59,082 bases of DNA from Acidobacteriota bacterium (lineage in GTDB: Bacteria > Acidobacteriota > Polarisedimenticolia > Polarisedimenticolales > DASRJG01): NCBI GenBank assembly GCA_041500265.1, contig JBGQLU010000003.1:1-59082 (forward strand), read 5' to 3'. Positions 40,592 to 56,492 of the stretch are shown here, piece after piece. The translations under genes were made by a program, and so were the position numbers. How positions within the stretch are numbered: the stretch's first letter is position 1; every line of letters begins with the position of its first letter. The notes beneath the pieces are model-generated. The model did no database searches. It was not told where the DNA came from and saw only the letters and a program-made list of their open reading frames with translations.

Positions 40592-42046
40592 TCAGCGGTC
40601 ATCTCCGTCCCGTCCTTCGGAGGCGGGTACGGCCGGGGTGACCGGCGTTGCGGTGCCGGTGAGGATCCAGGCCTTCTGGCTGGGCGCGAAGCGCGGCGCC
40701 AGGTAGCCGTCGTTGATCTCGCGGGTGACCGCGAAGCGGTTGAACGAGGTCGCCGGCAGGAATAGCCGGGCGTTGTCGATGAAGCCGTCCGAGGCGCTGT
40801 CCACGTCGCCTTCCACGGCGGAGATCACTCCGTCACCGTTCTGGTCGACGCGATCCACCTCGGCGGCGTACGCATCGAACAGGCGCTGCGGGAAGTCGGT
40901 GCCCGGCTCGAAGGAAGCCAGCCGCTCGAAGACGTCCAGGAAGATCTCGTTCGCGAGGCCGCTCGGGATGAACCGGTTGCGGAACTCCCGCTGCGCGTCG
41001 TCGTCGCCGTCGAACTTGTCGGGATCGCGGGGGAGGAACGGATTGTCCCCGTAGACGACCGGGTTGTTCCGCACGCCCTGCGGACCCGAGCCCGGCACCA
41101 GGCTGGAGATCCGGCCGATGTTCCCCAATTCGAACGTGCCCGGGATTCCGCCCGTGTTCGGGAGCTCGTAGAGGGGAAAGACCCAGTTGGTCGTGTAGTT
41201 GAACTCCCAGTAGCTGTGCACGTCACTCTGCTGCATGGCGTTGTAGGCGCCCATGCTCAGGAAGATCGGCACCGTGTTCCCCTGGATGTCGGGGAAGTGG
41301 TCCGCTTCGCTCGTGAAGCGCGCGGCCTTGCCGTCGGTGGTGAAGACGTGGCCGGCGACGTTGTTGCCGTTGCCGGTGGCCCGGAGCCGGTCGGCGTCCG
41401 CCTGGAGGAGCTTCCCGAACTTCGCATGGCCGTCCTGCCGGGGCGTATCGACGGGCGCGACCTTGAGATCATGGATCATCCACCCCTCGTACCAGCCGCT
41501 CTCGTTGTTGATCACGAAGAGCGGGTCGATGTCGGTGAAGATGTCGATGAAAGCGCGGACGTCGTTGGGATCGGTCGGCAGATCGGGCTTCGGCTCGAGG
41601 GCGAGACGGACGGAGCCGATCGTCGGGATGCCGCATACGCCGCCGGTCGCGGTGAGCTGCACGGCGTCGTTGACCCCAGGGAAGATCGTCGTGAACACGT
41701 TGGGCTCGAACCCGTGCGTGTCGAGGAGGTAGTACTGGAAGAGCAGGCTCTTCTGATCGGCCTCCGCGAAGGTCTGCATCGGGAGAAAGGTGTGGGGGCG
41801 TCCGGCGAGCCGGAGCAGCCGCTCCTTGAGCGGCCGCGGGGCGAGGCGGACGTCGCCGCGCTGCGCGAGCGTCGCCATGTCGGACTGCGCGTGCGGGTTC
41901 GGATGGCACGGCGCCGGGATGACGTCCGTCTGGAGGAGTGAGGCGGCCTGGCCGCTCGCGACCGACCCGGCGAGCGTGACCTTCGCGGCGACGGCCGCGG
42001 CGAACGAAATCTTCGAGATCCAACTCGGTTTCCGATACGTGACCAT
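40592..42046 (-). CDS. Secreted hypothetical protein with EF-hand-like loop
   Basis: Signal-like N-terminus; strong GC3 bias; INNESGWYEGWMIHD, HSYWEFNY, DQNGDGVISAVE; AGGAG RBS. Confidence 0.85.
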   Translation of the reverse strand: MVTYRKPSWISKISFAAAVAAKVTLAGSVASGQAASLLQTDVIPAPCHPNPHAQSDMATLAQRGDVRLAPRPLKERLLRLAGRPHTFLPMQTFAEADQKSLLFQYYLLDTHGFEPNVFTTIFPGVNDAVQLTATGGVCGIPTIGSVRLALEPKPDLPTDPNDVRAFIDIFTDIDPLFVINNESGWYEGWMIHDLKVAPVDTPRQDGHAKFGKLLQADADRLRATGNGNNVAGHVFTTDGKAARFTSEADHFPDIQGNTVPIFLSMGAYNAMQQSDVHSYWEFNYTTNWVFPLYELPNTGGIPGTFELGNIGRISSLVPGSGPQGVRNNPVVYGDNPFLPRDPDKFDGDDDAQREFRNRFIPSGLANEIFLDVFERLASFEPGTDFPQRLFDAYAAEVDRVDQNGDGVISAVEGDVDSASDGFIDNARLFLPATSFNRFAVTREINDGYLAPRFAPSQKAWILTGTATPVTPAVPASEGRDGDDR

Positions 42047-42132
42047 GGGACAGGCTCCTATCGAGAAGAGGTTCCGGGCCGCGCGGCGGGGGGCGCGCGA
42101 GGCTCGATCCCTGCTGGTTCCACCGTGAAGAT

Positions 42133-42471
42133 TCATGCGCCGGACGAGCCTCCCTGCTGTTTCGGGGCCGCGCGGTCGCTCGTGTCCCCGTTCGTGCGGA
42201 TCACGGCGATCCCGTCCTGCTCGAGCATGTCGGCGATCAGCGGCGAGCACCCGGTGATCCCGACGCCGGCCCGGGCGAGCCGGCCGAGCGCCTCCTTGCC
42301 GGAACGTGCGATGAGGGCCACGCCGGAGAGATCGAGCACGACCGGCCGATCGGAGCGCATCGCCTCCAAGCACACCCGCTCGAGCATGTCGGCCCATGCG
42401 GCGACGATGCGTCCCTCGAGGATCAGGACGACCCGTTGCTGGTCGGCGTCATTGCGAACGATGCGAAGCAT
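42133..42471 (-). CDS. STAS-like small protein
   Basis: MLRI..., LILEGRI...W...LE..C, VVLDLSGV..I...G...L..L...G. Confidence 0.75.
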   Translation of the reverse strand: MLRIVRNDADQQRVVLILEGRIVAAWADMLERVCLEAMRSDRPVVLDLSGVALIARSGKEALGRLARAGVGITGCSPLIADMLEQDGIAVIRTNGDTSDRAAPKQQGGSSGA

Positions 42472-42484
42472 GCCGCTCGACATC

Positions 42485-42499
42485 GCAACACACGTGCCA
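42485..42499 (-). promoter_or_regulatory. Consensus sigma54 promoter
   Basis: TGGCAC-GTGTG-TTGC, a perfect consensus, directly downstream of a bEBP gene. Confidence 0.85.
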
Positions 42500-42633: not shown

Positions 42634-44718
<2,085 letters not shown>

Positions 44719-45012
44719 GAGAACACCCGTCCCGCGGATCGACGTCCGACCTGCCGAGAGAGGCGAATGCGGACGTCCGGTCACGTCGGCGGCGCGCACT
44801 ATAGCGCCGACGCGGCGGCGCGTCCTAATGGCTCTCCCAGGCCGTCTCGGAGTGCTTCAATTTCAACGACTTAGGCGGCTCCGGACGGATCCGCGGAACA
44901 AGAACACGACAGCCGCCGCCGCCGTGGTCGGTGAACCGAGGTGTGGATCGTGTCACCGTGCGCCCACACCGTCGCTTCGGCCCGTTCTTACGCGTCCTGC
45001 TAGTCTTCCTCG

Positions 45013-46089
45013 ATGCTCCCGCGATGCGCTCGCCGCGGCCTCGCCGCGATGCTCCTCACCTGCGGCGGCGCGGTCGCGGCCTCGGCGGCCGGAGCCGCGA
45101 ACGGGCTGGGCGGCTGGATCGTTCCGTGGGACTTCGACGCAGGGATGCAAAGCGTCGCGCGGGGTCGGGGCCTGTTCGACGACGTCTTCCTCTTCGCGGC
45201 GCGCTTGGACCGTTCGGGAAAGGTCGTACTGGACGAGCGCAAAGGGCACTGGCCCGATGCCGTGCGGGACGCGCGCGCGGCCGGAGCCCGAGTTTGGCTC
45301 ACCGTGGTCAACGACGTCGTGGCCGCGGGGCCCTCGCGATCGATCCTCAAGGACTCGAACCTGGTCCACGAGCTTCTCGCGAGCCCCGAGCGGAGCGCCG
45401 CCCATCGCGCCGACATCGTGAACGCGGCGACCCAGCTCGGAGTCGAAGGCGTCGATCTGGATTACGAGAACCTCCCCAGGGGAGAACGCGAACGGTTCTC
45501 CTCCTTCGTCCGCGCGCTGGCCGAAGATCTGCACGCTCGCGGGCTGGCGCTGTCGGTGACCGTGCAGCCGAAGACCGCCGAGAGCACAGCCACCGGCCCC
45601 GGAGCGATGGATTGGAGCGCCTTGTGCTCGGCCGCGGATCGGATTCAAGTGATGCTCTACAACGAGCACAATGCGTCGACCGGACCCGGGCCGGTTGCCG
45701 GCATCGATTGGGTCCGGCGCGTCGCCGACTTCGGTTTGAAGACCTGCCCCGCGAAGTCGCTCGTCCCCGTTCTCAAGGTGTCGGGCATGGATTGGGGGCC
45801 CGACCGCTCCGACTGGCTGTCTTACCCGGAAGTGTCGTCGATCATCGAGCGCGTCCGGCCGAAGATCCACCGCGAGCGCGAGAACCGCGTCCCCTGGTTC
45901 GCCTATCGCGGCGCCGGGGGGCGCCACGTCGTCTACTTCGAGGACGCAGAGAGCCTCGCCGCGAAGTCCGGAGTCTTGAGAAGCCGCGGCCTTTCGAGAA
46001 TCGTGCTCTGGTCCCTCGGAAGCGAGGATCCCGTCGGCCCGGCGCGCATCGCGGCGACCTCGGGGAACGACGGCGGTCAGAATCGGTAG
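45013..46089 (+). CDS. Secreted GH18 family glycoside hydrolase
   Basis: Signal peptide; EGVDLDYE (DxDxE intact), VMLYNEH...PGPVA...W, VYFEDAES, LWSLG.ED. Confidence 0.88.
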   Translation: MLPRCARRGLAAMLLTCGGAVAASAAGAANGLGGWIVPWDFDAGMQSVARGRGLFDDVFLFAARLDRSGKVVLDERKGHWPDAVRDARAAGARVWLTVVNDVVAAGPSRSILKDSNLVHELLASPERSAAHRADIVNAATQLGVEGVDLDYENLPRGERERFSSFVRALAEDLHARGLALSVTVQPKTAESTATGPGAMDWSALCSAADRIQVMLYNEHNASTGPGPVAGIDWVRRVADFGLKTCPAKSLVPVLKVSGMDWGPDRSDWLSYPEVSSIIERVRPKIHRERENRVPWFAYRGAGGRHVVYFEDAESLAAKSGVLRSRGLSRIVLWSLGSEDPVGPARIAATSGNDGGQNR

Positions 46090-49000
46090 GCGAACGAAGC
46101 GTTGACCGCGGTCCGATGATACGTGGGGGTCTGCCCATACTCCCCCGTCACCATGGTGCGCCACCGCGTCGTCCAATCCTGCGTCCAGGCGATTCGCGCG
46201 CGCCCGACCACGCGCGAGCCTGCTTGATCGTCTCGAGAGGGCCCGACTCCCACCTCCGCGTCGATCGAGGCTCCCGTGGCGAAGGACCGCACCACGCGGG
46301 TGAGGGCCAGCAGCGTGACGAGACGCTGGGGCGCGTAGTAGCCGACGGCGCTGAACTGACTGTCGCCGGCCTCGAATCGACCGCCGACCTCCACCAGGCG
46401 CCTCGCCCCGAGCCCCACGGTTCCGTCCGCCCACGCGTAGAGCAACCGGTTGCCGTCGGTCAGGTCGTAATACGAGACGTGGGCGCGTGTCCGCCAGGTC
46501 CGGGTCAGGAACTCGTGGCCCGCATCGCATCCGCGCTTCAGGATGCTGTCCCGCAGCGCTCCGACCGTGTCCTCGTCGAGAACGCCACAGGCGAGGTCGA
46601 AGCGATTTCGGTCGACGCCGCCCCGAAGGCTCGCCTCGCCGTTCAGGCTCCGCACGCCGTCGTTCAGGCTCCGGTACCGGAGCCAGCCGAGGACCGACAG
46701 CCCTTTCGGCGCGTCCCAGGCCCCTCCGAGCGTCGCCTGGCCGCCCTCGAGTGCTGCGAACGCGCGGTCGGTGAACCGCGCCGAGCCGAGCTCGCCCCAC
46801 AGTCGGAACGGCGCCGAAAACGACACGCGCCCGGCGGCTCCGACCTCCACCGTGCCGCGTCCGTCGGAATCCGAGGAGCCGTGCGTCTCGAGGCCCGCCT
46901 GAGGATCGGTCTCCCAGGCGAGCTCACGTCCGACCCGCTTCCGGAAGGGGTCGACACGCCCCCATTCGGGGCCCGTCGGCAGCGCCGCGTAGACGCGCTC
47001 GGCGTCGCGCATCCTGCCCTGGTCTTGAAGGGAGCGGGAGAGGAAGAACCCCGCCTCCGGACCGGTTCTCTCGTCGGCGGCGATCATCGAGCGAAACGCG
47101 GCCTCCGCGCGGCGTGGACGGGCGTTCCAGAGATCCCAACGTGCGGCATCGAGCATGGCTTCCGCGCGAGGCGCCTCGATCGCGAGATGCGCCATGAGCC
47201 GCTCGCCGTTCCACTCGCGAGGAACGTTGAAGCGACGCAGGAGGAGCGGTCCCTGTGCCGCGGCGGCGACGACGTTGTACCCGGAATCGTCCTGCACGAA
47301 GCCGTAACGGTAGTATCTGCGGAACGCGTCCTCGTTGGCTGCGAGCGCGCCGGGGTCGTTCCCGCCGTGCAGCTGCCCCATCTCGGAGAACGGAAAGGCG
47401 TACCCCACGACGGATTGACCCGGCAAGTTGTCGCCGAGCCGCCGCCGGCACTCCAGATAGTCGCCATCCACCCGGGCGACGTACTCGTCGTGGGTCTCGA
47501 GCCGCCCCGCGTCCGCGAGCCACTCGCGGTTAACGAGGAACTCGGCCAGACCGCCGGCCTCGTCCACCGGAATGGGATCGTGGGCCAGGTGGCCGTGGCT
47601 CTGGAAGTCCCAGCGGCCGGTCGAGCGGAGCTCCCGGAGCCGTGTCCAGTCGGCGTTGAAGGCGCTTTCATCGGCGATCCTCACCGTCGGCACGAACATC
47701 GTCGCCTTCATGTTGAGGCGGGCGAGCACGGGATCGGCAAGCTGGAACGAGTCGGCGCGCGCGTCGTCGAAGGTCACCAGAACCGGCTTCCGCGGAAACG
47801 GCGCCGCTCCCGAGCGCATCGCGTCGAGGTCGCTGACGGTGATCGTCGTGAAGCCCGCAGCCGCCAACGCCTCCATCTGCGATACGAACCGATCGAGCGG
47901 CATGCTCAGGCTCCGCGGGTGTTCGGCCAGCCCGTGGTAGAGGAGGATCGGGACATCCACGCGGCCCGCGGGGGTACTCAGGATGCTCGCACGGCGAGCG
48001 GCGGCCTCCGCGCGTCGCCCCGTTTCTTCGAAGATCGACGCTTCCTCCAGGGCACGCTCGTGGGGATCGAGGAACCCGTCACGGTCCGAGCGCAGGAGCG
48101 CGAGCGCTTCGGAGTACCGCCCCAACGCGTACAACGCATGCACCTCCCCGATGAACACCGTGCGATTCCGGCCCAGGTCCTTGCGGAGCCGCCGGTACTC
48201 GTCGAGCGCTTCTCCCGGCCGATGGAGGGTGAGGTGGACGTCCGCGAGCAGGAAGCGGAGCTGCGGGGAATCGGGATGGGAGCGCATGGCCTCTTCGAGC
48301 ACGCGCTCGGCGAGGCGTGGTCGATCGGTCGCTTCGTAGGTTTCGACGAGCGTGACCCAGTAGGCCACGCGCTGCGGGTAGCGCGTGACGAGCTCTCGGT
48401 ACCAGCGCCCGGTCGACGCGTCGTTCCTCTGCACCTGGGCGTCCTCCGCGAGGAGGCGCAGGACGGGCTCCGAGGCGCGGTTCCCGGCGACGAGATCGCG
48501 CGCCGCATTGATCGCGTCGTCGTACTCTCCCGTCTCGTACATGGATCGGATCCAGTAATGGGTTGCGCGCGGGAGCTCCGATCCCATGTCGATGATCTTG
48601 CGCCACTGGGCCTCGGAGGCTTTGAAGTCTAGGCTTCTCCACAAGGCCTCCCCGTAAAGAGTCTGCACGGTGAGATCGTCGGGGTGCTGTTCCACCAGCG
48701 TCTCGGCGAGCGTTCTCGCGCTGCGGTACTTGCCGTCGGCGAGGTACGCCCTCGTCAGGAGGACGTTGGGGCCCTTCGTGTCCGTCGGATCGAACGCCAG
48801 AGCGAGGAGGGCCTGCTCGATGGCCGCGGCCGGCGTGCCGCGCTGAAGCTCGAGTCGCGCCAGGAGCAGACGGGGCTCCGCCAGCTCGGAATACGCGGCC
48901 GCGTAGCCGGTCCAAACCCGGCGCACTCCGGCCCAGTCGGCCTGCCTCCATAGGGTCCATCCGTAGTCGCGGAGCGCGGCGCGGTTGTTCGGATCCGCGT

Positions 49001-50222
49001 CGAGCGCCTTTCGATAGAACACGCTCGCGGCCGCATCGTCTCCCGCTCGATAGGCCGCGCCCCCTCGCGCCGCCGCGAGACGTGCCAGGGCCACACCCGA
49101 GGCCTCCCGGCGTCCGGGCTCGCGGGATCGGGCGTCGAAGAAGCGCTCGCCTGCATCGAGCGCATCGTTCCGGATGAACAGGTCGGCGCACCGGACGAAC
49201 TCGGAAGGATCGACCGGGCCGGTCGAGAACAGGTCCTCGAGCGACGCTGTCGCACCGGAAACGTCACCGCCGTCGAGTGCCAGGGCGGCCAGAGCGTAGA
49301 GCGCCGCGGCCTTGTTCGAAGTCGTCTTGGCCGATCGCGTGTACGCCTCGCGCGCTTCCGTGAGCCGGCCCGCGTCTCGCAAGGCGTCCCCGATGGCTTG
49401 CCAAAGAGCGGCCGGCTCGGGAGCGCCCCGATCGACCGCCAGGCGCCATTCCGTTACGGCGTCGGCATTCGCCCCCGCCTTGCGAAGCGCCCACCCGAGG
49501 TTGACCCGGTACACGATCTTGGCGGGATCGTAGCGGACGGCCTCGCGATAGTCGTCCCGGGCGGTATCCCACGCTTCGGCCCGATACGCCTCGTCTCCCT
49601 TCGTCGCCACGACGCGGGCGAGGCGCCTGGCGATCGCTCCGTCGCTGTCGCGGACGCGCGCCAGCGCTTCGCGAAGGACCGCTTCGGCGGCATCGAGCCG
49701 CCCGCGCTTCTCCTCCAGGTCGGAGAGCCTCGAGATCGCGCCGATGTCCCCGGGAAGGCGCTCCAGGATGGCGCGGTACTGCGAGGCCGCCGGATCGAGC
49801 CGGCCGAGCTGCTCGTACGCCCGACCGAGCCGCAACCGGATCTCCGGTTGTCGCGAGTTCGCGGCGAGACTTCGCTCGTACGCGATCGAGGCCTCGCGCC
49901 AGGAGCCGGCATCCAGCCGGACGTCGCCGACGGCGTTCCACGCGTCGACGTTGTCCGGCTCGAGCTTCAGGACCGTGTCCCAGACGCGAAACGCCTCGCG
50001 GTCGTTGCCGAGCCTGTGGTGCGCCCAGCCCAGGTTCTCCCAGGCTCGGATCAGAGCCGGGTCCAGATCCACGGCTTTTTGGAAGCTGAGGAGCGCGCCG
50101 CGAAAGTCCCCCGCCTTGTAGAGCCTCACGCCGTCGTCGAGCGGCCCTTGGCCCGGCGAGCGTGCCGCCGCCGGCAGCGCGGACGCTAAAACGATCGCGG
50201 CGATCGTGAGGGCGTGCCTCAC
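46077..50222 (-). CDS. TPR-repeat / CE4 polysaccharide deacetylase / probable outer-membrane beta-barrel fusion
   Basis: Signal peptide; more than 12 TPR-like repeats; VPILLYHG, VTFDDA, SHGHLAH, AFPF, LRRF (PgaB/NodB-type); amphipathic beta-strand C-terminus ending in YRF. GTGA coupling to the upstream gene. Confidence 0.88.
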   Translation of the reverse strand: MRHALTIAAIVLASALPAAARSPGQGPLDDGVRLYKAGDFRGALLSFQKAVDLDPALIRAWENLGWAHHRLGNDREAFRVWDTVLKLEPDNVDAWNAVGDVRLDAGSWREASIAYERSLAANSRQPEIRLRLGRAYEQLGRLDPAASQYRAILERLPGDIGAISRLSDLEEKRGRLDAAEAVLREALARVRDSDGAIARRLARVVATKGDEAYRAEAWDTARDDYREAVRYDPAKIVYRVNLGWALRKAGANADAVTEWRLAVDRGAPEPAALWQAIGDALRDAGRLTEAREAYTRSAKTTSNKAAALYALAALALDGGDVSGATASLEDLFSTGPVDPSEFVRCADLFIRNDALDAGERFFDARSREPGRREASGVALARLAAARGGAAYRAGDDAAASVFYRKALDADPNNRAALRDYGWTLWRQADWAGVRRVWTGYAAAYSELAEPRLLLARLELQRGTPAAAIEQALLALAFDPTDTKGPNVLLTRAYLADGKYRSARTLAETLVEQHPDDLTVQTLYGEALWRSLDFKASEAQWRKIIDMGSELPRATHYWIRSMYETGEYDDAINAARDLVAGNRASEPVLRLLAEDAQVQRNDASTGRWYRELVTRYPQRVAYWVTLVETYEATDRPRLAERVLEEAMRSHPDSPQLRFLLADVHLTLHRPGEALDEYRRLRKDLGRNRTVFIGEVHALYALGRYSEALALLRSDRDGFLDPHERALEEASIFEETGRRAEAAARRASILSTPAGRVDVPILLYHGLAEHPRSLSMPLDRFVSQMEALAAAGFTTITVSDLDAMRSGAAPFPRKPVLVTFDDARADSFQLADPVLARLNMKATMFVPTVRIADESAFNADWTRLRELRSTGRWDFQSHGHLAHDPIPVDEAGGLAEFLVNREWLADAGRLETHDEYVARVDGDYLECRRRLGDNLPGQSVVGYAFPFSEMGQLHGGNDPGALAANEDAFRRYYRYGFVQDDSGYNVVAAAAQGPLLLRRFNVPREWNGERLMAHLAIEAPRAEAMLDAARWDLWNARPRRAEAAFRSMIAADERTGPEAGFFLSRSLQDQGRMRDAERVYAALPTGPEWGRVDPFRKRVGRELAWETDPQAGLETHGSSDSDGRGTVEVGAAGRVSFSAPFRLWGELGSARFTDRAFAALEGGQATLGGAWDAPKGLSVLGWLRYRSLNDGVRSLNGEASLRGGVDRNRFDLACGVLDEDTVGALRDSILKRGCDAGHEFLTRTWRTRAHVSYYDLTDGNRLLYAWADGTVGLGARRLVEVGGRFEAGDSQFSAVGYYAPQRLVTLLALTRVVRSFATGASIDAEVGVGPSRDDQAGSRVVGRARIAWTQDWTTRWRTMVTGEYGQTPTYHRTAVNASFAYRF

Positions 50223-51970
50223 CTCGTCACCAACAGGCGCATCCCCGATCGGCGGAGCTCCTTCTCCACCGCCCGGGCCGCTTGCGACCAGCCCTCCCCC
50301 GATGCGCGCGGGACAGCTTCGAGTCCGAGCGACAGGCCGTCGAAGCGCTGCTCGGCGGCGCGCCGCGCCAGCATGGACGCCCACTCATCGGGGTGACCGG
50401 GCGCCGCCCCGCGGGCCGCGACGCTCGGCACCACGTCCCACGCGAACTTCCGGGACAGGATGCGTAGGAGGTCGCGATCGATCGGTCGCTCCCGCACGGT
50501 GCCCCCCTCGACCGTGGCCCAAGGCGGGCTGATCGCGGCGATCGAATCCGCATCGCGGGCCAAGATCCGGATCGCCGCCGCATCGGGCGACGCCGGAATC
50601 GACCGAACGCGATACGGGTAGGCCGAGAAGCGCAAGTCGGAAACCGAGAGAGTTGCCGCTCCCGCGCGGCTGTAGGCGACCAGTCCGATCTTCCCGCTCC
50701 ACCTCGCCGGGAGGGCGATCGGCTCGTTCGAGACCGGAGTCCCGTCCCAGATCGCCCGGATTCCTCGACCTCGCTTGATGAGGCCCAACGTGTGCGACCG
50801 CGCTTTCGTCGCGGCGTCGGGCCGGCGAGCCAGGACTTCGGGCGCCTGTCCACGCTCGCGAACCTGGACGTAGAGGATCCCGTCGGCGCCTCCGATGCGC
50901 CACTCGCGGCCACGCGTCTCGTCGGGTTGGACGACCCAGAACTCCCCGTCGCCGAGCGAGACGCGCGCCGCGAGCTCCCAATCGTCCACCCACCTCGCGG
51001 CCGGGATCCAGACCTCGGCTCGCGGCGTTCCACTAAGGCGAAGCGAGGCACCGTCGGGAGTAACGGTTCCCTCTCCTTGAACCCAACGATCTTCGACGGG
51101 GACCGGCTCGCCCGTTGGAGAGCGGGGCGGTGGAGAGGCGACGGCACGGTCCAATCGAGCCAACAACTCCGGCGGGCTCCACGATGGCGCGACGCGCAAT
51201 CGCGGAACGCGGAAGGGACTCGCGTCGGTGGGAGCGGCGCCGGCGACGTCGTCCTCGAAGCCGAGCCAGGGGAACGCCTCGCGCGGTGCGTCCATGCATC
51301 CGAGCGCGGCCAGCGGACCATCGCCGCGGGGGGCCCACGCGAGGACTTCGGGACGCCCCAGCCTCGACGCGATCCGCCGCGCCCCGGGAGGCTCGGGCGG
51401 AAGCACGCACGGCTCGGCCCCGGGAGCGGCGTCCGGCGGGTCGCCCGAAGCGATTTCCCAGAGCCCGCTCTGGACCATGCGCTGAAGGCGGTCCCAGAAG
51501 AGAAACGAGACGTCGCGGCTTTCCTGGCGCTCGGTCCGGAGGAACATCACGGCGGGCCAGTGAAGTTCGCGGAGGACAGGGTCGGCGGCCTCGTAAGTGC
51601 TCAGGTACCCTTCGTCGAACGTGAGCAGGAAGGGCTTGGCCGGCAGCGGCACGCCGTGAGCGTAGGCCGCGCGGACCTCAACGAGGGTGACCGCCTGCCA
51701 GCCCGCGGCCGCGAGGGCGCGTAGAGCCTTTCGTAGTCCGATCCGGTCGACGTGGCCGGCGTCCGGCATCCTCACGACGCGGTCAAAGGCAAGAGCGACG
51801 AGGCGGCCGCCCTCGTCCGGCCCCGCGGCTCGGCGGGCGGCGAGCTCGACGCGACGGTTGAGCCAGGCGCTCGTTCCGGCCCACAACACGGCTCCCGCGA
51901 CCAGCGTCGCGATCCAGGTTCTGCGGTCGCGAACGAACGTCCGCGACTCGAAGACGCTCCCTCGGCTCAT
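50219..51970 (-). CDS. Membrane-anchored protein with degenerate CE4 deacetylase, central beta domain and partial degenerate GH18 domain
   Basis: N-terminal TM; LLTFDEGY, WPAVMF, WEIASGD (no His pair); C-terminal AISPPW...FDGLSLGLE. Confidence 0.8.
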   Translation of the reverse strand: MSRGSVFESRTFVRDRRTWIATLVAGAVLWAGTSAWLNRRVELAARRAAGPDEGGRLVALAFDRVVRMPDAGHVDRIGLRKALRALAAAGWQAVTLVEVRAAYAHGVPLPAKPFLLTFDEGYLSTYEAADPVLRELHWPAVMFLRTERQESRDVSFLFWDRLQRMVQSGLWEIASGDPPDAAPGAEPCVLPPEPPGARRIASRLGRPEVLAWAPRGDGPLAALGCMDAPREAFPWLGFEDDVAGAAPTDASPFRVPRLRVAPSWSPPELLARLDRAVASPPPRSPTGEPVPVEDRWVQGEGTVTPDGASLRLSGTPRAEVWIPAARWVDDWELAARVSLGDGEFWVVQPDETRGREWRIGGADGILYVQVRERGQAPEVLARRPDAATKARSHTLGLIKRGRGIRAIWDGTPVSNEPIALPARWSGKIGLVAYSRAGAATLSVSDLRFSAYPYRVRSIPASPDAAAIRILARDADSIAAISPPWATVEGGTVRERPIDRDLLRILSRKFAWDVVPSVAARGAAPGHPDEWASMLARRAAEQRFDGLSLGLEAVPRASGEGWSQAARAVEKELRRSGMRLLVTR

Positions 51971-52000: not shown

Positions 52001-53677
52001 CTACCGCGTTCCCCAGTGGTTGCGCCGCACGGTCGCGAGCGCGTAGTAGGTCTGCCACACGAGGACCACCATGTAGAAGAGACTGAACGCGATGCCGTAG
52101 ATCCACATGCCGCTCTTGTGCCGGACGAGGTAAACGAGTCCGTAGAGCAGGGCCATCAGGAGCGTCCCGTAGGCGTACAGATACGAGAAAGCGCCGAACC
52201 CGAACATGGGGAGCACCAGGGCGATGAAGACGACCGCAGGCGAGATGAACGGGAAGATGACCCCGAGGTAGAAATAGAACGCGGCGAGCGGGTGGCGCTT
52301 CCACATGAAGGTCGAGGCCAGAAGGCTCTCCCGGATCCACGACTTCTTCCAGCGGAGCTGCTGCCGGAAGAACTGCCCGAGCGTGGACGGCACGATCGTC
52401 GCGCAGATCGCGCTGGCGTCGTAGAGGACCCGTCGCCTGCGAAGCATGAAATTCGTCAGGCTGCGATCGTCCCCGAACGTCGCCGGCGTACCCAAGAACT
52501 CCTGCTCGAGCCACGCGTCGAGGACCTCCATGACGTAGGCCCGCCGATACGCGGCGAGACAGCCGGAGCAGCAGGTGACCGTGTCGAAGAGGGACTCCGC
52601 GGACTTCACGATGCGGAACGCGACGTAATAGCGAACCTCCTGCATCTTCGTAAGGAGGTTGTCCCCGGCGTTGGCGACCGTACCGTGCCCGCAGACCGCG
52701 CCGACCTCCGGGTTCGCGAATCCCTGAACGATGCGTGCGAAGGCGTCCCGGCGGACGAAGCTGTCGGAATCGACGTAGATCAGGATGTCGCCGGTCGCCC
52801 GCCGCGCCGCGGCGGCCATCCCGTGGCGCTTGCCTCGGTTCGTCTCGAACCGCACCAGCTCCAGATCCGGGTGCCTCTCGCGAGTTCTCTCCATCTCGGC
52901 CCAGGTGCCGTCGGTCGAGCCGTCGTCGACCACGATCACCTGCATCAGCTCCGGGGGATAGTCGGAGCGGTAGATGCACTCGAGCGTCTCCCGGATCGCT
53001 CGTTCTTCGTTCTTGCAAGAGATCGCGACCGTGATCTTGGGGCGCAGGCCTTCGTCGCGTGGGGGGGTGTACAAGCAAGCCAGCGCGATGCGCGAGAGGA
53101 TGTAGCCGGAGATCAGGAGGCTGTAAAGGTTGACGATCGGGTGATACCAGAAATAGTAGAGATTGTTCCCGCGCAGCCACACGACATCGATCGCGGTCGC
53201 GGCGATCAGCGCCAGGCCGATCCACGGAAGCGCGACGTCGAACAGCGCCAGCGCCTTGGAACCGCGGTCGGTCGCGAGGACGGCCCCGTAGGCGTAGGGG
53301 TGATCCGGGGAATTCGAGTCGGGAGGGACGGCCCGCACGACGCGCGCCATCACGCTGTCGAGAGCGCGCAGCTTCCGGGGCATCGCATTGCGGACGGCAA
53401 GGCTCGGAGACCAGGCGAGCCGTACCCATCGACCGACGTCCACCGGCCGGCTCGTGCGCAGCTTCACGCCGTCTTCGCCCAGGTCGGTTGCGATCCCGGT
53501 GCCGCTCTCGCCCCGCGGGAGGCTCCAATTCGGCCGGAAGGACAGAGGCACCTCGAGCGGTTGCCGGCGGTGGCGCCGTCGTTCCGGCGGCTCGGCGGCG
53601 CGATCCGAAGTTACCTCCGCCCGCGCGTCTATGAACGGCGCTGGGCGCATCGGTCGGCTGGCCCCTCCCTCTCTCAT
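52001..53677 (-). CDS. PilZ-domain-fused GT2 processive synthase (hyaluronan synthase/NodC-like)
   Basis: ERRRHRR and DLGEDG (PilZ); two TMs; DDGSTD, GKRH, VDSDS, CCSGCLAAYR, EQEFLG...TFGDDRSLTN, QQLRWKKSW; C-terminal TMs. Start may be 53650. Confidence 0.9.
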   Translation of the reverse strand: MREGGASRPMRPAPFIDARAEVTSDRAAEPPERRRHRRQPLEVPLSFRPNWSLPRGESGTGIATDLGEDGVKLRTSRPVDVGRWVRLAWSPSLAVRNAMPRKLRALDSVMARVVRAVPPDSNSPDHPYAYGAVLATDRGSKALALFDVALPWIGLALIAATAIDVVWLRGNNLYYFWYHPIVNLYSLLISGYILSRIALACLYTPPRDEGLRPKITVAISCKNEERAIRETLECIYRSDYPPELMQVIVVDDGSTDGTWAEMERTRERHPDLELVRFETNRGKRHGMAAAARRATGDILIYVDSDSFVRRDAFARIVQGFANPEVGAVCGHGTVANAGDNLLTKMQEVRYYVAFRIVKSAESLFDTVTCCSGCLAAYRRAYVMEVLDAWLEQEFLGTPATFGDDRSLTNFMLRRRRVLYDASAICATIVPSTLGQFFRQQLRWKKSWIRESLLASTFMWKRHPLAAFYFYLGVIFPFISPAVVFIALVLPMFGFGAFSYLYAYGTLLMALLYGLVYLVRHKSGMWIYGIAFSLFYMVVLVWQTYYALATVRRNHWGTR

Positions 53678-53837
53678 GAATGCGTGCTATCGAATGAATC
53701 TACCTTGTTCCTCTCTCCCCCGCCCTACTCCGTGTCGAAACCCATTCGCAAAACGCACCGCGAATGTCTCGTATGCCGAACGTCCAGAAAATGACGACAC
53801 CATTGCGCGGTTTGTGACATCACGGTATTTCTGCAGC

Positions 53838-56492
53838 ATGCGCCCAACCCTGGTCGCTTGCGTCCTGTCGGTCCTCACATTCGTCGCGCTCCCCGCGTCG
53901 GGCCAGGCACTGCCTCCGGGGTTCCAGGATTCCGTCGTCCTCAGCGGTCTCACGCTGCCGATGGCCGTCCGCTTCGCGCCGGACGGCCGGATCTTCGTCG
54001 CGGAGAAGAGCGGCCTGATCAAAGTCTTCGACTCCCTGCAGGATCCGACCCCGACCGTCTTCGCCGATCTTCGCGTCGAGGTGATGGACTACTGGGATCG
54101 GGGACTCCTGGGACTGGCGATCGATCCGAACTTTCCGTCCCAGCCTTATGTGTACGTTTCTTATACGTACGACTTCGACCCGGCCACCCCGCAGATCCCC
54201 CCGCCCCGTTGGGGCGATCAGTGCCCGACGCCGCCGGGCCCGAACGACGACGGCTGTGTGGTCACGGGGCGCGTATCGCGCCTGAAGATCAACCCGGACG
54301 ACACGCAGAACGGCCCGGAACAAGTCCTCCTCGGGAACAACTGGTGCCAGCAGTTCCCGTCCCACTCGTTGGGCGCGATCGACTTCGGACCGGAGGGCGC
54401 GCTTTACGTAAGCGCGGGGGAAGGAGCCAGCTTCCGTCTCGTGGACTACGGGCAGAAAGGCGGGACCCTCGGAGCGCCCCCTCCGGTGCCCTCGAACCCG
54501 TGCGGAGATCCGCCCACCGGACGCGGCGGAACTCAAACGGCTCCTTCGGGCGAAGGCGGGGCACTACGCTCGCAGGACTATCGAACGACGTCGGACTCGC
54601 TGTCGTGGGACGGGTCGATGCTGCGCGTCGACCCGGTGACGGGGGTCGGATGGCCGGGAAACCCCAACTCGGATCGCACCGTCGCATTCGGCTTCCGGAA
54701 CCCGTTCCGATGGACGTTCCGGCCGGGGACAGCCGAGGTCTGGCTCGGCGACGTGGGATGGGACACCTGGGAAGAGATCAACCGCCTTACCGCAATCCCG
54801 GGACCGTCGGCGGCCAACTTCGGCTGGCCCTGCTACGAAGGCGCCCCGCGCCAGCCGAGCTACGAGAACGCCGGCCTCACCCTTTGCCAGACACTCTACG
54901 GGCAGGGGCCGTCGGCGGTCTTAGCACCGTACTTCGCCTATCAGCACTACCAGAAGATCGATCCGAACGAGACCTGCAGTAACGCGAACTCGTCGATTAC
55001 GGGGCTCGTCTTCTATCCCGCGGGGGGGTATCCGTCATCCTACGAGGATGCCCTCTTCTTCGCCGACCACTCTCGCAATTGCATGTGGGTCATGACCAAG
55101 GGAGCCAACGGACTCCCGGACCCGGCAACCGTGCACGTCTTCGAGAACGGCGCGTCCGAGCCGGTGGACCTTCAGCGCGGACCTGGGGGGGACGTCTTCT
55201 ACGTCGATCACGAGGGGGGGGCGATCCACCGCATCTCCTACACCTCGGGGAACACGCCGCCGACCGCCGTCGCCGATGCGAGCCCGCGAAGCGGCGGTGT
55301 CCCCCTGACCGTCCAGTTCGATGGGTCGCTCTCGAGCGATCCGGATCCGGGCGCGACGCTCACGTACGCCTGGGACCTGGACGGCGACGGGCTCTTCAAC
55401 GACGCGTTCGTGGTCCGGCCGATCCACACCTACACGGTCGCCGGACAGATCACCGCCCGCTTGCGGGTGACCGATGACAAGGGCGCCTCGTCGATCGACG
55501 GCGTCGTCGTGAGCCCCGGGAATCACGCGCCCCTCGCGACCGTCACGGCGCCGCCGCCCACCCTCACCTGGGCCGTCGGCGATGCCATCGTCTATTCCGG
55601 AAAGGGGCAAGACACCGAAGACGGAGCGATGCCCGCCTCGTCGATGCACTGGGACATCGTCATGCACCACTGTCCGAGCGGGACTCCCGACTGCCACGAG
55701 CACCTCATCGAATCGCACGACGGAACCTCGGGAGGCACGTTCGTCGCCCCGGACCACGATTACTACTCGTATCTCGAGTTCCGGCTCACGGTGACCGATC
55801 TCGGCGGGCTCACGGGCGTCAATTCGGCGGACATCGACCCGAAGACGAGCGTCACCACGTTCGCCTCGAGCCCAGCCGGCGCGACCATCTCCGTAGGCTT
55901 CCGCACGGCGCCGGCGCCGTTTTCGCAGACTCTGATCGTGAACTCGACGAACTCCGTCTCCGCGGCAGGTTTGCAGACGTTGGCCGGCCTCCCGTCGTAC
56001 TGGAGCTCCTGGTCGGACGGCGGCGCCCGCCTCCACGACATCGTGGCGGGCGCGTCCGCCGCGACGTTGACGGCGAGCTACCTGGTCTGTGGAACCGTCG
56101 AGATATGCGGGGACGGCCGGGACAACGACTGCGACGGCGTCGTCGACAACGGCGCGATCCCCGGCCCGATGCTCTCGTTCCACGTCGACCACGACAAGAT
56201 GTTCTGGACGGCGCTTCCGGGAGCCCAGACGTACGACGTCGTGCGCGGAAGCCTCAACGGCCTGAGGAACAGCCACGGCGACTTCGCCGCCTACACCCAG
56301 GAGTGCCTCGACAACAACGACCCGGGAACGGCTCTGATCTACCCTTCGAACCCGCCCGCGTCCGGGAGCGTGCAATGGTACATGGTCCGGGCGAACAACT
56401 GCGCCGGAGCCGGCACGTGGAACGACGGGTCGCCGACGCAAGTCGCGGATCGCGATCCGGGAATCAATGCCTCGAGCCACACCTGCCCGTGA
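53838..56492 (+). CDS. PQQ-dependent glucose/sorbosone dehydrogenase family protein with PKD, MopE-like and C-terminal domains
   Basis: Signal peptide; FAPDGRIFVAEK.G, DRGLLGLA.DP.F, GFRNPFR, DVGW.TWEEIN, NFGWPCYEG; PKD (LTVQFDGS.SSDPD...YAWDLDGDG); EICGDGRDNDCDG. Confidence 0.9.
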   Translation: MRPTLVACVLSVLTFVALPASGQALPPGFQDSVVLSGLTLPMAVRFAPDGRIFVAEKSGLIKVFDSLQDPTPTVFADLRVEVMDYWDRGLLGLAIDPNFPSQPYVYVSYTYDFDPATPQIPPPRWGDQCPTPPGPNDDGCVVTGRVSRLKINPDDTQNGPEQVLLGNNWCQQFPSHSLGAIDFGPEGALYVSAGEGASFRLVDYGQKGGTLGAPPPVPSNPCGDPPTGRGGTQTAPSGEGGALRSQDYRTTSDSLSWDGSMLRVDPVTGVGWPGNPNSDRTVAFGFRNPFRWTFRPGTAEVWLGDVGWDTWEEINRLTAIPGPSAANFGWPCYEGAPRQPSYENAGLTLCQTLYGQGPSAVLAPYFAYQHYQKIDPNETCSNANSSITGLVFYPAGGYPSSYEDALFFADHSRNCMWVMTKGANGLPDPATVHVFENGASEPVDLQRGPGGDVFYVDHEGGAIHRISYTSGNTPPTAVADASPRSGGVPLTVQFDGSLSSDPDPGATLTYAWDLDGDGLFNDAFVVRPIHTYTVAGQITARLRVTDDKGASSIDGVVVSPGNHAPLATVTAPPPTLTWAVGDAIVYSGKGQDTEDGAMPASSMHWDIVMHHCPSGTPDCHEHLIESHDGTSGGTFVAPDHDYYSYLEFRLTVTDLGGLTGVNSADIDPKTSVTTFASSPAGATISVGFRTAPAPFSQTLIVNSTNSVSAAGLQTLAGLPSYWSSWSDGGARLHDIVAGASAATLTASYLVCGTVEICGDGRDNDCDGVVDNGAIPGPMLSFHVDHDKMFWTALPGAQTYDVVRGSLNGLRNSHGDFAAYTQECLDNNDPGTALIYPSNPPASGSVQWYMVRANNCAGAGTWNDGSPTQVADRDPGINASSHTCP

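Follow-up and report, generated by a model that had tools for sequence, protein, structure and literature searches.

We analyzed a 59,082-nt stretch of an Acidobacteriota genome (contig JBGQLU010000003.1, positions 1 to 59,082 of the forward strand; assembly GCA_041500265.1), referred to here as the window, and focused on a minus-strand gene at 46077..50222 that encodes a 1381-aa protein and on the three genes that accompany it. On the minus strand a 558-aa GT2 synthase (52001..53677) is the first operon gene, followed by a 583-aa CE4 paralogue (50219..51970) and then by the 1381-aa gene. A GH18 hydrolase gene lies convergently on the plus strand (45013..46089), and its 3' end overlaps that of the 1381-aa gene by 13 nt. 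The longest form of the 1381-aa open reading frame (ORF) runs over 46077..50384, but homologues are 1376-1385 aa long, and for this reason we favored the 1381-aa form, whose GTG start at 50220-50222 overlaps, in the sequence GTGA, with the upstream gene's TGA stop. The N-terminus of this form, VRHALTIAAIVLASALPAAA followed by RS, resembles a Sec signal peptide when judged by eye (residues 1-20, 50163..50222, minus strand), with cleavage after AAA, and residues 1-19 were flagged by a crude hydropathy scan. Because the signal peptide contains no Cys, the protein is not a lipoprotein.

An initial annotation, made from the letters and a list of ORFs, had described this ORF as a single chain in which a signal peptide and a long tetratricopeptide repeat (TPR) array are followed by a CE4 deacetylase domain at about 47960-47180, a short TPR segment and a beta-strand tail ending in YRF. 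The layout was borne out throughout. The TPR array occupies residues ~26-750 (47973..50147) and was matched by TPR_19, TPR_16, TPR_14 and other Pfam families at E values from 2e-34 to 1e-7, the matched stretches falling between residues 33 and 748; we estimate that it holds roughly 20 repeats if each is 34 aa long. A profile search also matched the cellulose exporter structure BcsC 9b8a across the TPR positions. The CE4 de-N-acetylase domain, of the PgaB type, lies at residues 760-1005 (47208..47945), close to where it had been placed, and passed the Pfam gathering score for PF01522 (Polysacc_deac_1, residues 808-883; 34.5 bits, cut-off 23.1), with a match covering just profile positions 3-71 of 124. 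It is followed by six helices that form three TPR-like hairpins (residues 1006-1105, 46908..47207) and by a 16-strand outer-membrane beta barrel (residues 1108-1381, 46080..46901). All of these features are on the minus strand. The chain ends in FAYRF, with 32 of 36 aligned sequences sharing the terminal Phe.

To place these boundaries we used an AlphaFold2 (AF2) model of the last 622 residues (760-1381), built from an alignment with 35 homologues (A1). The model had a mean predicted local distance difference test score (pLDDT) of 93.5 and a predicted TM score (pTM) of 0.86, and showed a CE4-type alpha/beta domain at model positions 1-246, six helices at 247-346 and sixteen DSSP beta strands at 349-621. 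In VIA-align comparisons, the CE4 part matched 4u10_A (Z 26.8, root-mean-square deviation (rmsd) 2.5, 236 residues aligned, model 1-255 to 31-288) and Escherichia coli PgaB 4f9d_A (Z 26.2, rmsd 3.1, 243 aligned, model 1-262 to PgaB 52-311). The helices and barrel matched PelB 9h80_M (Z 25.0, rmsd 4.0, 342 aligned, model 260-622 to PelB 803-1191) and BcsC 6tzk (Z 24.5, rmsd 4.1, 321 aligned, model 292-622 to BcsC 707-1137), and the barrel matched the PgaA porin 4y25 (Z 24.2, rmsd 2.9, 268 of 290 aligned, model 343-622 to PgaA 514-807). BcsC 9b8a gave Z 24.4, the two BcsC alignments spanning model 258/292-622 and BcsC 668/707-1137. Unrelated barrels reached Z 15.7 at most, and Foldseek returned the same families. 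These alignment ranges make the six helices the counterpart of the porin-proximal TPRs of PelB and BcsC, with CE4 inserted just before them. Together with the Pfam matches, the predicted structure confirmed the chain as a TPR scaffold, a CE4 domain, porin-proximal TPR hairpins and a 16-strand export barrel.

The CE4 domain had also been described as having intact metal and catalytic motifs (TFDD, SHxHxxH), and alignment to PgaB and BpsB and across homologues agreed. An N-terminal YH motif, Tyr762-His763 (47934..47939), contains a candidate catalytic acid; TFDD at residues 817-820 (47763..47774) holds the catalytic base Asp and a metal Asp; and SHGHLAH at residues 875-881 (47580..47600) contributes the metal ligands His876 and His881, all read from the minus strand. 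Residues Y762, H763, T817, F818, D819, D820, H876 and H881 were unchanged in 36 of 36 aligned sequences that are otherwise 26-89% identical to the 1381-aa protein, while the middle His of SHGHLAH was kept in 30 of the 36. In phmmer alignments, TFDD fell opposite the TFDD of E. coli PgaB and Bordetella BpsB, and SHGHLAH opposite SHTWNSH of PgaB and SHSHNLH of BpsB with identical H-x4-H spacing; PILLYH aligned with PILMYH of PplD (6dq3). The PgaB residues usually cited for catalytic and metal roles are His55, Asp114/115 and His184/189. Model residue 1 aligned with PgaB residue 52, and we take the His of the Tyr762-His763 motif to be equivalent to PgaB His55. With all canonical catalytic and metal residues in place, the CE4 domain of the 1381-aa protein is apparently an active deacetylase.

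We then looked at whether the single chain is found elsewhere. A protein collection yielded 111 relatives at E <= 0.001, the full-length ones with E = 0. These values and the unchanged motif residues put the features of the chain well outside what chance could produce. Among genomes taken one per species, 121 stretches matched our patterns, 103 encoded a relative and 80 loci were kept; the locus counts given below rest on these 80. At 63 of them at least 580 aa follow the CE4 start within the same ORF, which corresponds to CE4 plus a barrel-sized tail. Upstream of CE4, 47 of the 63 have at least 500 aa, 8 have 200-500, 7 are cut by the 5' end of a contig and 1 has fewer than 200. Of the remaining 17 loci, 6 are cut at the 3' end; the stretch behind the CE4 start is 500-580 residues long in 1 and shorter than 500 in 10, of which 7 are short forms that have neither TPR nor barrel. 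Isolate-genome carriers include Holophaga foetida DSM 6591, Methylobacter svalbardensis, Methylovulum psychrotolerans and a Methylocaldum sp. In a set of 31 related genomes, the source genome among them, 6 had a match, of which 3 were full length without internal stops and 2 were contig-end fragments.

The initial annotation had called for a check of homologues and reads against an assembly fusion, and contigs from runs of four other studies bridged both junctions. The TPR-CE4 junction was spanned by X2 (47358-48439, 0 differences), X4 (47745-48557) and X3 (47440-48269, 9 differences), and the CE4-linker-barrel stretch by X2 (46436-47355, 0 differences) and X5 (46685-47234), with no insertions or deletions listed. 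The read layout contained two low-support joints with sides of 22 and 20 letters, against a guide value of 30, which we took to be noise from other organisms. A search for shorter, split forms produced just 9 matches, mostly contig-end fragments. The CE4-porin fusion is a conserved natural architecture.

The genes beside it were examined in turn. The synthase matched Glycos_transf_2 (1.6e-29) and Chitin_synth_2 (3.6e-20) in Pfam, and in NCBIfam it scored 189.8 bits with NodC versus 129 with PgaC_IcaA, both below cut-off. Compared with solved structures, it was closest to hyaluronan synthases (7sp7, E 5e-31), with BcsA (1e-5) and a chitin synthase (8e-5) behind them. It has four hydrophobic segments and the strings DSD, GDDR and QQLRW, presumably the hallmark motifs of the hyaluronan-synthase/NodC group, and we classed it as a processive synthase of that type. 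PilZ was found at the N-terminus of three of five scanned homologues (7e-10, 2e-4 and 3e-4; none in L002 or L006) and in the Holophaga synthase (E 8e-11). An N-terminal PilZ domain on a hyaluronan-synthase/NodC-type synthase suggests control by cyclic di-GMP (c-di-GMP).

The convergent GH18 hydrolase (Pfam Glyco_hydro_18, 4e-19) has a signal peptide, with a hydrophobic N-terminus, and a DLDYE motif; its closest solved relatives were 5jh8, a 'probable chitinase' (E 1.3e-28), and YdhD 3cz8 (2.7e-22). A cassette-linked GH18 was present at 31 of the 80 loci and carried DxDxE in 24 of them, one of the 7 misses being a truncated match. All four genes (GT2, CE4 paralogue, 1381-aa type and GH18) occurred together, by tblastn, at 19 of 80 loci, including that of Holophaga foetida DSM 6591, and GH18 ran opposite to the other genes in 16 of these complete cassettes and in the same direction in 3 (L018, L020 and L024). 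The order in Holophaga is a UDP-sugar dehydrogenase, PilZ-GT2, the CE4 paralogue, a 1395-aa TPR-CE4-barrel protein and GH18. By record titles, which are those of metagenome bins and possibly unreliable, the four-gene system is widespread and reaches at least Acidobacteriota, Nitrospirota, Elusimicrobiota, Desulfobacterota-like lineages and methanotrophic Gammaproteobacteria.

We scanned 53 of the 97 flanking ORFs at 18 loci and found no further common neighbor apart from a gene of the UDP-glucose/GDP-mannose dehydrogenase family, which stood beside the synthase at 3 of the 18 (L020 3056-4354, L024 3022-4332 and L017 33-1523). This neighbor may point to a uronic acid as a constituent of the polymer in some lineages. 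The intergenic region upstream of the operon (53678-53838) contained no match to a sigma-54 promoter, and across the window there were 31 such matches versus 36 expected.

The 583-aa paralogue matched the Polysacc_deac_1 and PgaB models. Its AF2 model (25-sequence alignment A2, pLDDT 89.5) consisted of a helix at the N-terminus (11-37), then a CE4 fold (52-275; Z 23.2 to PplD and 21.8 to PgaB), a CBM66/concanavalin-like sandwich (290-453; Z 18.4) and a small alpha/beta domain. The helix at 11-37 in this model would anchor the protein in the membrane. The Asp-Asp pair was present in 0 of 25 paralogue sequences, the window copy reading TFDEG, the N-terminal YH was replaced in 25 of 25, and both metal His residues were in register in 3 of 25. 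The protein therefore looks like a conserved pseudo-deacetylase partner, and since the Asp-Asp pair is lost in all 25, the 1381-aa protein is left as the sole canonical deacetylase of the cassette.

The seven short forms (L071, L074, L075, L076, L077, L079 and L080) come from bins titled Patescibacteria/Saccharibacteria-like, two being titled only 'bacterium'. Their loci are reduced to two genes, GT2 and then a CE4 protein of ~510-540 aa with no TPR and no barrel; in at least five of the seven, the distance from the GT2 match to this downstream gene is ~300 nt or less. The six that we translated all had a hydrophobic N-terminus, intact YH and TFDD and a similar lectin-like sandwich region, and five of the six had the H-x4-H motif. 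We compared 61 CE4 domains by maximum likelihood, 29 of them porin-type, 25 from paralogues, 6 from short forms and one from PgaB. In the resulting tree, the porin-type domains formed one group (support 98/92) that joined the short forms (98/90) and was separate from the paralogues. Since the tree is unrooted, PgaB is represented by a single row on a long branch and composition deviates in nine rows, it does not establish the order of events. A history consistent with these groups is that an anchored CE4-lectin enzyme was duplicated, after which the active copy may have joined the porin protein while the anchored copy degenerated.

Together, the domain order and folds, a catalytic site with its residues intact, and the conservation of both the single ORF and the four-gene cassette lead us to assign a probability of about 80% to the following reading: the 1381-aa protein is the outer-membrane exporter of a synthase-dependent exopolysaccharide system and has a polymer-modifying deacetylase built into it. 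The locus has the components of a synthase-dependent secretion locus, namely a TPR-barrel exporter, a periplasmic modifying enzyme and a glycoside hydrolase. In the mechanism that we propose, the GT2 synthase, probably gated by c-di-GMP through its N-terminal PilZ-like domain, would polymerize a chain containing N-acetylglucosamine (GlcNAc) and push it across the inner membrane, where the inner-membrane-anchored pseudo-deacetylase with its lectin-like module would receive or guide it. The ~720-residue TPR array of the 1381-aa protein would span the periplasm. CE4, placed between this array and the three porin-proximal hairpins and with its active site presumably facing the pore mouth, would take off some of the N-acetyl groups; the partly cationic chain would then flow outward through the 16-strand barrel, and the periplasmic GH18 hydrolase would trim or clear polymer. 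On this mechanism the polymer would be modified at the pore entrance, as the initial annotation had proposed.

The hydrolase bears on what the polymer might be. GH18 enzymes act on beta-1,4-linked GlcNAc with the acetamido group assisting. The hydrolases of poly-N-acetylglucosamine (PNAG) that are named in one account belong to GH20 and GH153 (PMC5933820). For these two reasons we favor a partly deacetylated beta-1,4-GlcNAc chain, chitin- or chitosan-like, to which we would give somewhat less than even odds; a hyaluronan-like or other heteropolymer comes next at a little under one in three, and a beta-1,6 PNAG-like polymer last at about one in four.

Several observations weigh against the reading of a built-in deacetylase exporter. 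The system is patchy among close kin, being found in 6 of 31 genomes, and is thus accessory. The PgaA model TIGR03939 gave 37.2 bits against a cut-off of 366.65 and touched only TPR residues 36-181; the PgaB model TIGR03938 gave 59.2 bits against 321.9 over profile positions 20-197 of 621. The Pfam family PF21197 (PgaA_barrel) was absent from the window barrel and passed on 0 of 8 barrel pieces, the best piece remaining sub-threshold (E 0.012, 15.2 bits versus 27). PilZ on the N-terminal 150 residues of the window synthase (53228-53677, minus strand) was weak (E 0.0085, 16.8 bits versus a cut-off of 22.5), and the hydropathy scan at a threshold of 1.6 flagged no membrane helix in the 583-aa paralogue. 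Finally, a crude alternate-residue count of lumen-facing charges in the barrel gave 17 acidic and 17 basic residues, a balance that, by this rough method, does not point to an electronegative pore such as one would expect if the polymer were cationic.

More tentatively, the cassette may represent an unnamed further class of Gram-negative synthase-dependent exopolysaccharide machinery that secretes a chitosan-like polymer, in which the deacetylase would have been relocated from an inner-membrane-anchored enzyme, of the kind that Patescibacteria still have, to the porin and the old copy would persist as a lectin-bearing pseudo-enzyme serving as co-polymerase or guide. We offer this wider proposal as one possibility, falling short of even odds.

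The comparison with the Pga system decides how far the fusion can be described in Pga terms. The 1381-aa protein has the PgaA-type layout of N-terminal TPRs and a C-terminal 16-strand porin (4y25 Z 24.2, rmsd 2.9), and its CE4 has the PgaB-type fold (Z 26), the Asp/His/His triad with H-x4-H, the catalytic Asp and the N-terminal His. The initial annotation had described the PgaA and PgaB roles as fused in one chain, and this was correct for the TPRs, the porin and the deacetylase, with the deacetylase half of PgaB lying in the same chain as the porin. It did not extend to the rest of PgaB: PgaB has a GH153 domain and a lipid anchor, whereas the 1381-aa protein has no GH153, the TPR linker and barrel coming after CE4 instead, and no lipobox. 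The hydrolase role seems to belong to the separate GH18 gene, and a catalytically degenerate, separate PgaB-like gene sits directly upstream. The likeness to Pga likewise held for the architecture and failed for the synthase, which is nearer to NodC and hyaluronan synthase than to PgaC, and for the barrel, which had no PgaA_barrel match. In role the 1381-aa protein resembles PgaA plus the deacetylase half of PgaB, but neither its sequence nor its operon makes it a member of Pga.

An alternative would nevertheless keep the locus within Pga, as a divergent system that makes a beta-1,6-GlcNAc polymer (PNAG) with a PgaA into which the PgaB deacetylase domain has been fused. This would account for the best sequence and fold matches of CE4, which are PgaB, BpsB and IcaB, and for the barrel, whose best rmsd was to the PgaA porin. 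It fits poorly with the synthase, since NodC outscored PgaC_IcaA and hyaluronan synthases were the best solved relatives, an outcome that also departs from a pgaABCD-type operon; with the PgaA_barrel result, which was negative for every barrel piece; and with the hydrolase, as the conserved enzyme is a GH18 with DxDxE and there is no GH153. No candidate PgaD was seen between or beside the cassette genes, where no PgaD model was searched. We consider this alternative unlikely. Relative to pgaABCD, the present cassette has a hyaluronan-synthase/NodC-type synthase, an extra pseudo-CE4 protein and an extra GH18.

The placement of CE4 fits experimental data on how PgaA and PgaB dock. In E. coli, the TPR region of PgaA that lies close to the outer membrane binds the PgaB deacetylase domain and raises its activity (PMC9384988), and the deacetylase of the 1381-aa protein occupies the position of that PgaB docking site, residues 221-515 of PgaA beside the porin (PMC9384988). 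The link between PgaA and PgaB in E. coli is non-covalent, whereas here it is covalent. The TPR region is also of another size, ~720 residues as against the 8 TPR motifs predicted for PgaA in that source (PMC9384988).

A second alternative is that CE4 serves as a non-catalytic carbohydrate-binding or structural insert, in which case the polymer would not be deacetylated at this point. A CE4 pseudo-enzyme does occur in the same cassette, the 583-aa paralogue, and the Pfam match is confined to profile positions 3-71 of 124. However, the catalytic and metal residues of the porin-type domain are invariant in 36 of 36 sequences despite 26-89% identity, and the paralogue shows how rapidly the same positions drift once unconstrained; we regard a non-catalytic role as quite improbable. 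That the single ORF is an artefact of assembly or annotation joining a TPR-porin gene to a deacetylase gene can be dismissed on the present data, despite the source being a fragmented metagenome-assembled genome (251 contigs, 75% complete), since the same architecture and length recur in independent records including isolate genomes, full-length matches uninterrupted by stops occur in 3 related genomes, and contigs from four other studies span both junctions without indels.

Other export systems share parts of the design. PelB was the highest-Z match of the linker and barrel (Z 25.0), at 11% identity in the alignment. Pel also deacetylates a periplasmic hexosamine polymer before export (PMC12022489), the same role that we propose here. 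PelA, in contrast, which combines a hydrolase with a deacetylase, is a separate soluble protein whose deacetylase is not the closest CE4 relative of the 1381-aa protein, and no equivalents of PelC, PelD, PelE, PelF or PelG were seen in the cassette. BcsC has TPRs and a 16-strand barrel (6tzk Z 24.5, 9b8a Z 24.4) and exports a glucose-based polymer. BcsA has its PilZ domain at the C-terminus, unlike the synthase of this cassette, whose PilZ-like domain is N-terminal. An operon survey reports, among its fusions, a BcsZ-BcsC fusion and GT-PgaB fusions (PMC7112194). The BcsZ-BcsC fusion, from Zymomonas, is a precedent for joining a periplasmic polymer-processing enzyme to a porin (PMC7112194), although the fused enzyme there is a glycoside hydrolase and here a deacetylase. 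The survey's IcaB-like and GT-fused PgaB clades (Bundalovic-Torma et al. 2020) place CE4 beside an inner-membrane GT2, with no PgaA (PMC7112194), and the two-gene form of Patescibacteria resembles this layout. Those clades are without an outer-membrane component, whereas here it is the porin protein that contains the active CE4, the copy near the membrane being degenerate.

A full-text search, which did not extend to most subscription journals, found no publication that describes a TPR-deacetylase-porin protein or the cassette, and the accessible part of a 2026 review makes no mention of such a protein (PMC13721041). Public records label these proteins only as 'tetratricopeptide repeat protein' or TPR/deacetylase. 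Holophaga foetida and several methanotrophs are cultured carriers of the cassette, which looks like a so far undescribed polysaccharide system of bacteria from soil and sediment. In the Pga, Pel and alginate systems, the spatial and temporal coupling of modification to export is still debated because the enzymes bind their TPR-porin partners only transiently. The arrangement described here would be a one-chain solution, with the deacetylase fixed between scaffold and pore, and offers a stable single protein in which the coupling of modification to export could be studied structurally. The fusion also lends independent support to the biochemical mapping of the PgaA-PgaB docking site in E. coli. 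Should the product prove chitosan-like, the system would be a bacterial route to secreted chitosan and a clear case of an enzyme and a pseudo-enzyme paralogue splitting labor across the cell envelope.

We also asked how far the barrel family extends beyond the cassette. A profile of the linker and barrel (A4) matched 201 representatives at E <=1e-30, 2005 at <=1e-10 and 12023 at <=0.001, the weaker matches probably being inflated by TPR matches of the linker. Out of 250 database proteins examined, 238 had a near-full linker and barrel match, and these comprised 195 with CE4 directly upstream (191 of them within 40 residues), 21 short fragments, 1 intermediate and 21 long proteins without a CE4 match. 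Sixteen of the 21 long CE4-less proteins were scanned and contained TPR families only, and several had 150-430 Pfam-free residues before the barrel linker. CE4-less TPR-porin relatives therefore exist and are a minority within the barrel family. In the ESM Atlas the top match, at 0.94, was a TPR cluster; PgaA_barrel clusters at 0.83-0.84 are leads and not evidence.

Five members of the barrel family (P0192, P0227, P0241, P0236 and P0211; 1432-1652 aa) have no detectable CE4 and carry 150-430 Pfam-free residues between the last TPR and the linker. Another inserted domain may stand in the place of the deacetylase in these proteins.

Two further features of the window lie outside the cassette. 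Divergent from the synthase, at ~53838-56492 on the plus strand, is a gene for a large secreted protein with glucose/sorbosone dehydrogenase, PKD and MopE-like motifs, and a 48%-identical copy of it adjoins the cassette in L001 (1585-4350). An exact sigma-54 consensus, TGGCAC-N5-TTGC, was found at 42485-42499 on the minus strand; near matches across the window were not above chance. The site is just downstream of the gene for a GAF-GAF-AAA+ sigma-54 activator (42634-44799) and upstream of an ORF at 40592-42397. The likely true start of this ORF, at MVTYRK, lies ~440 nt further on and is signal-peptide-like, and the ORF encodes a secreted protein with no Pfam family.

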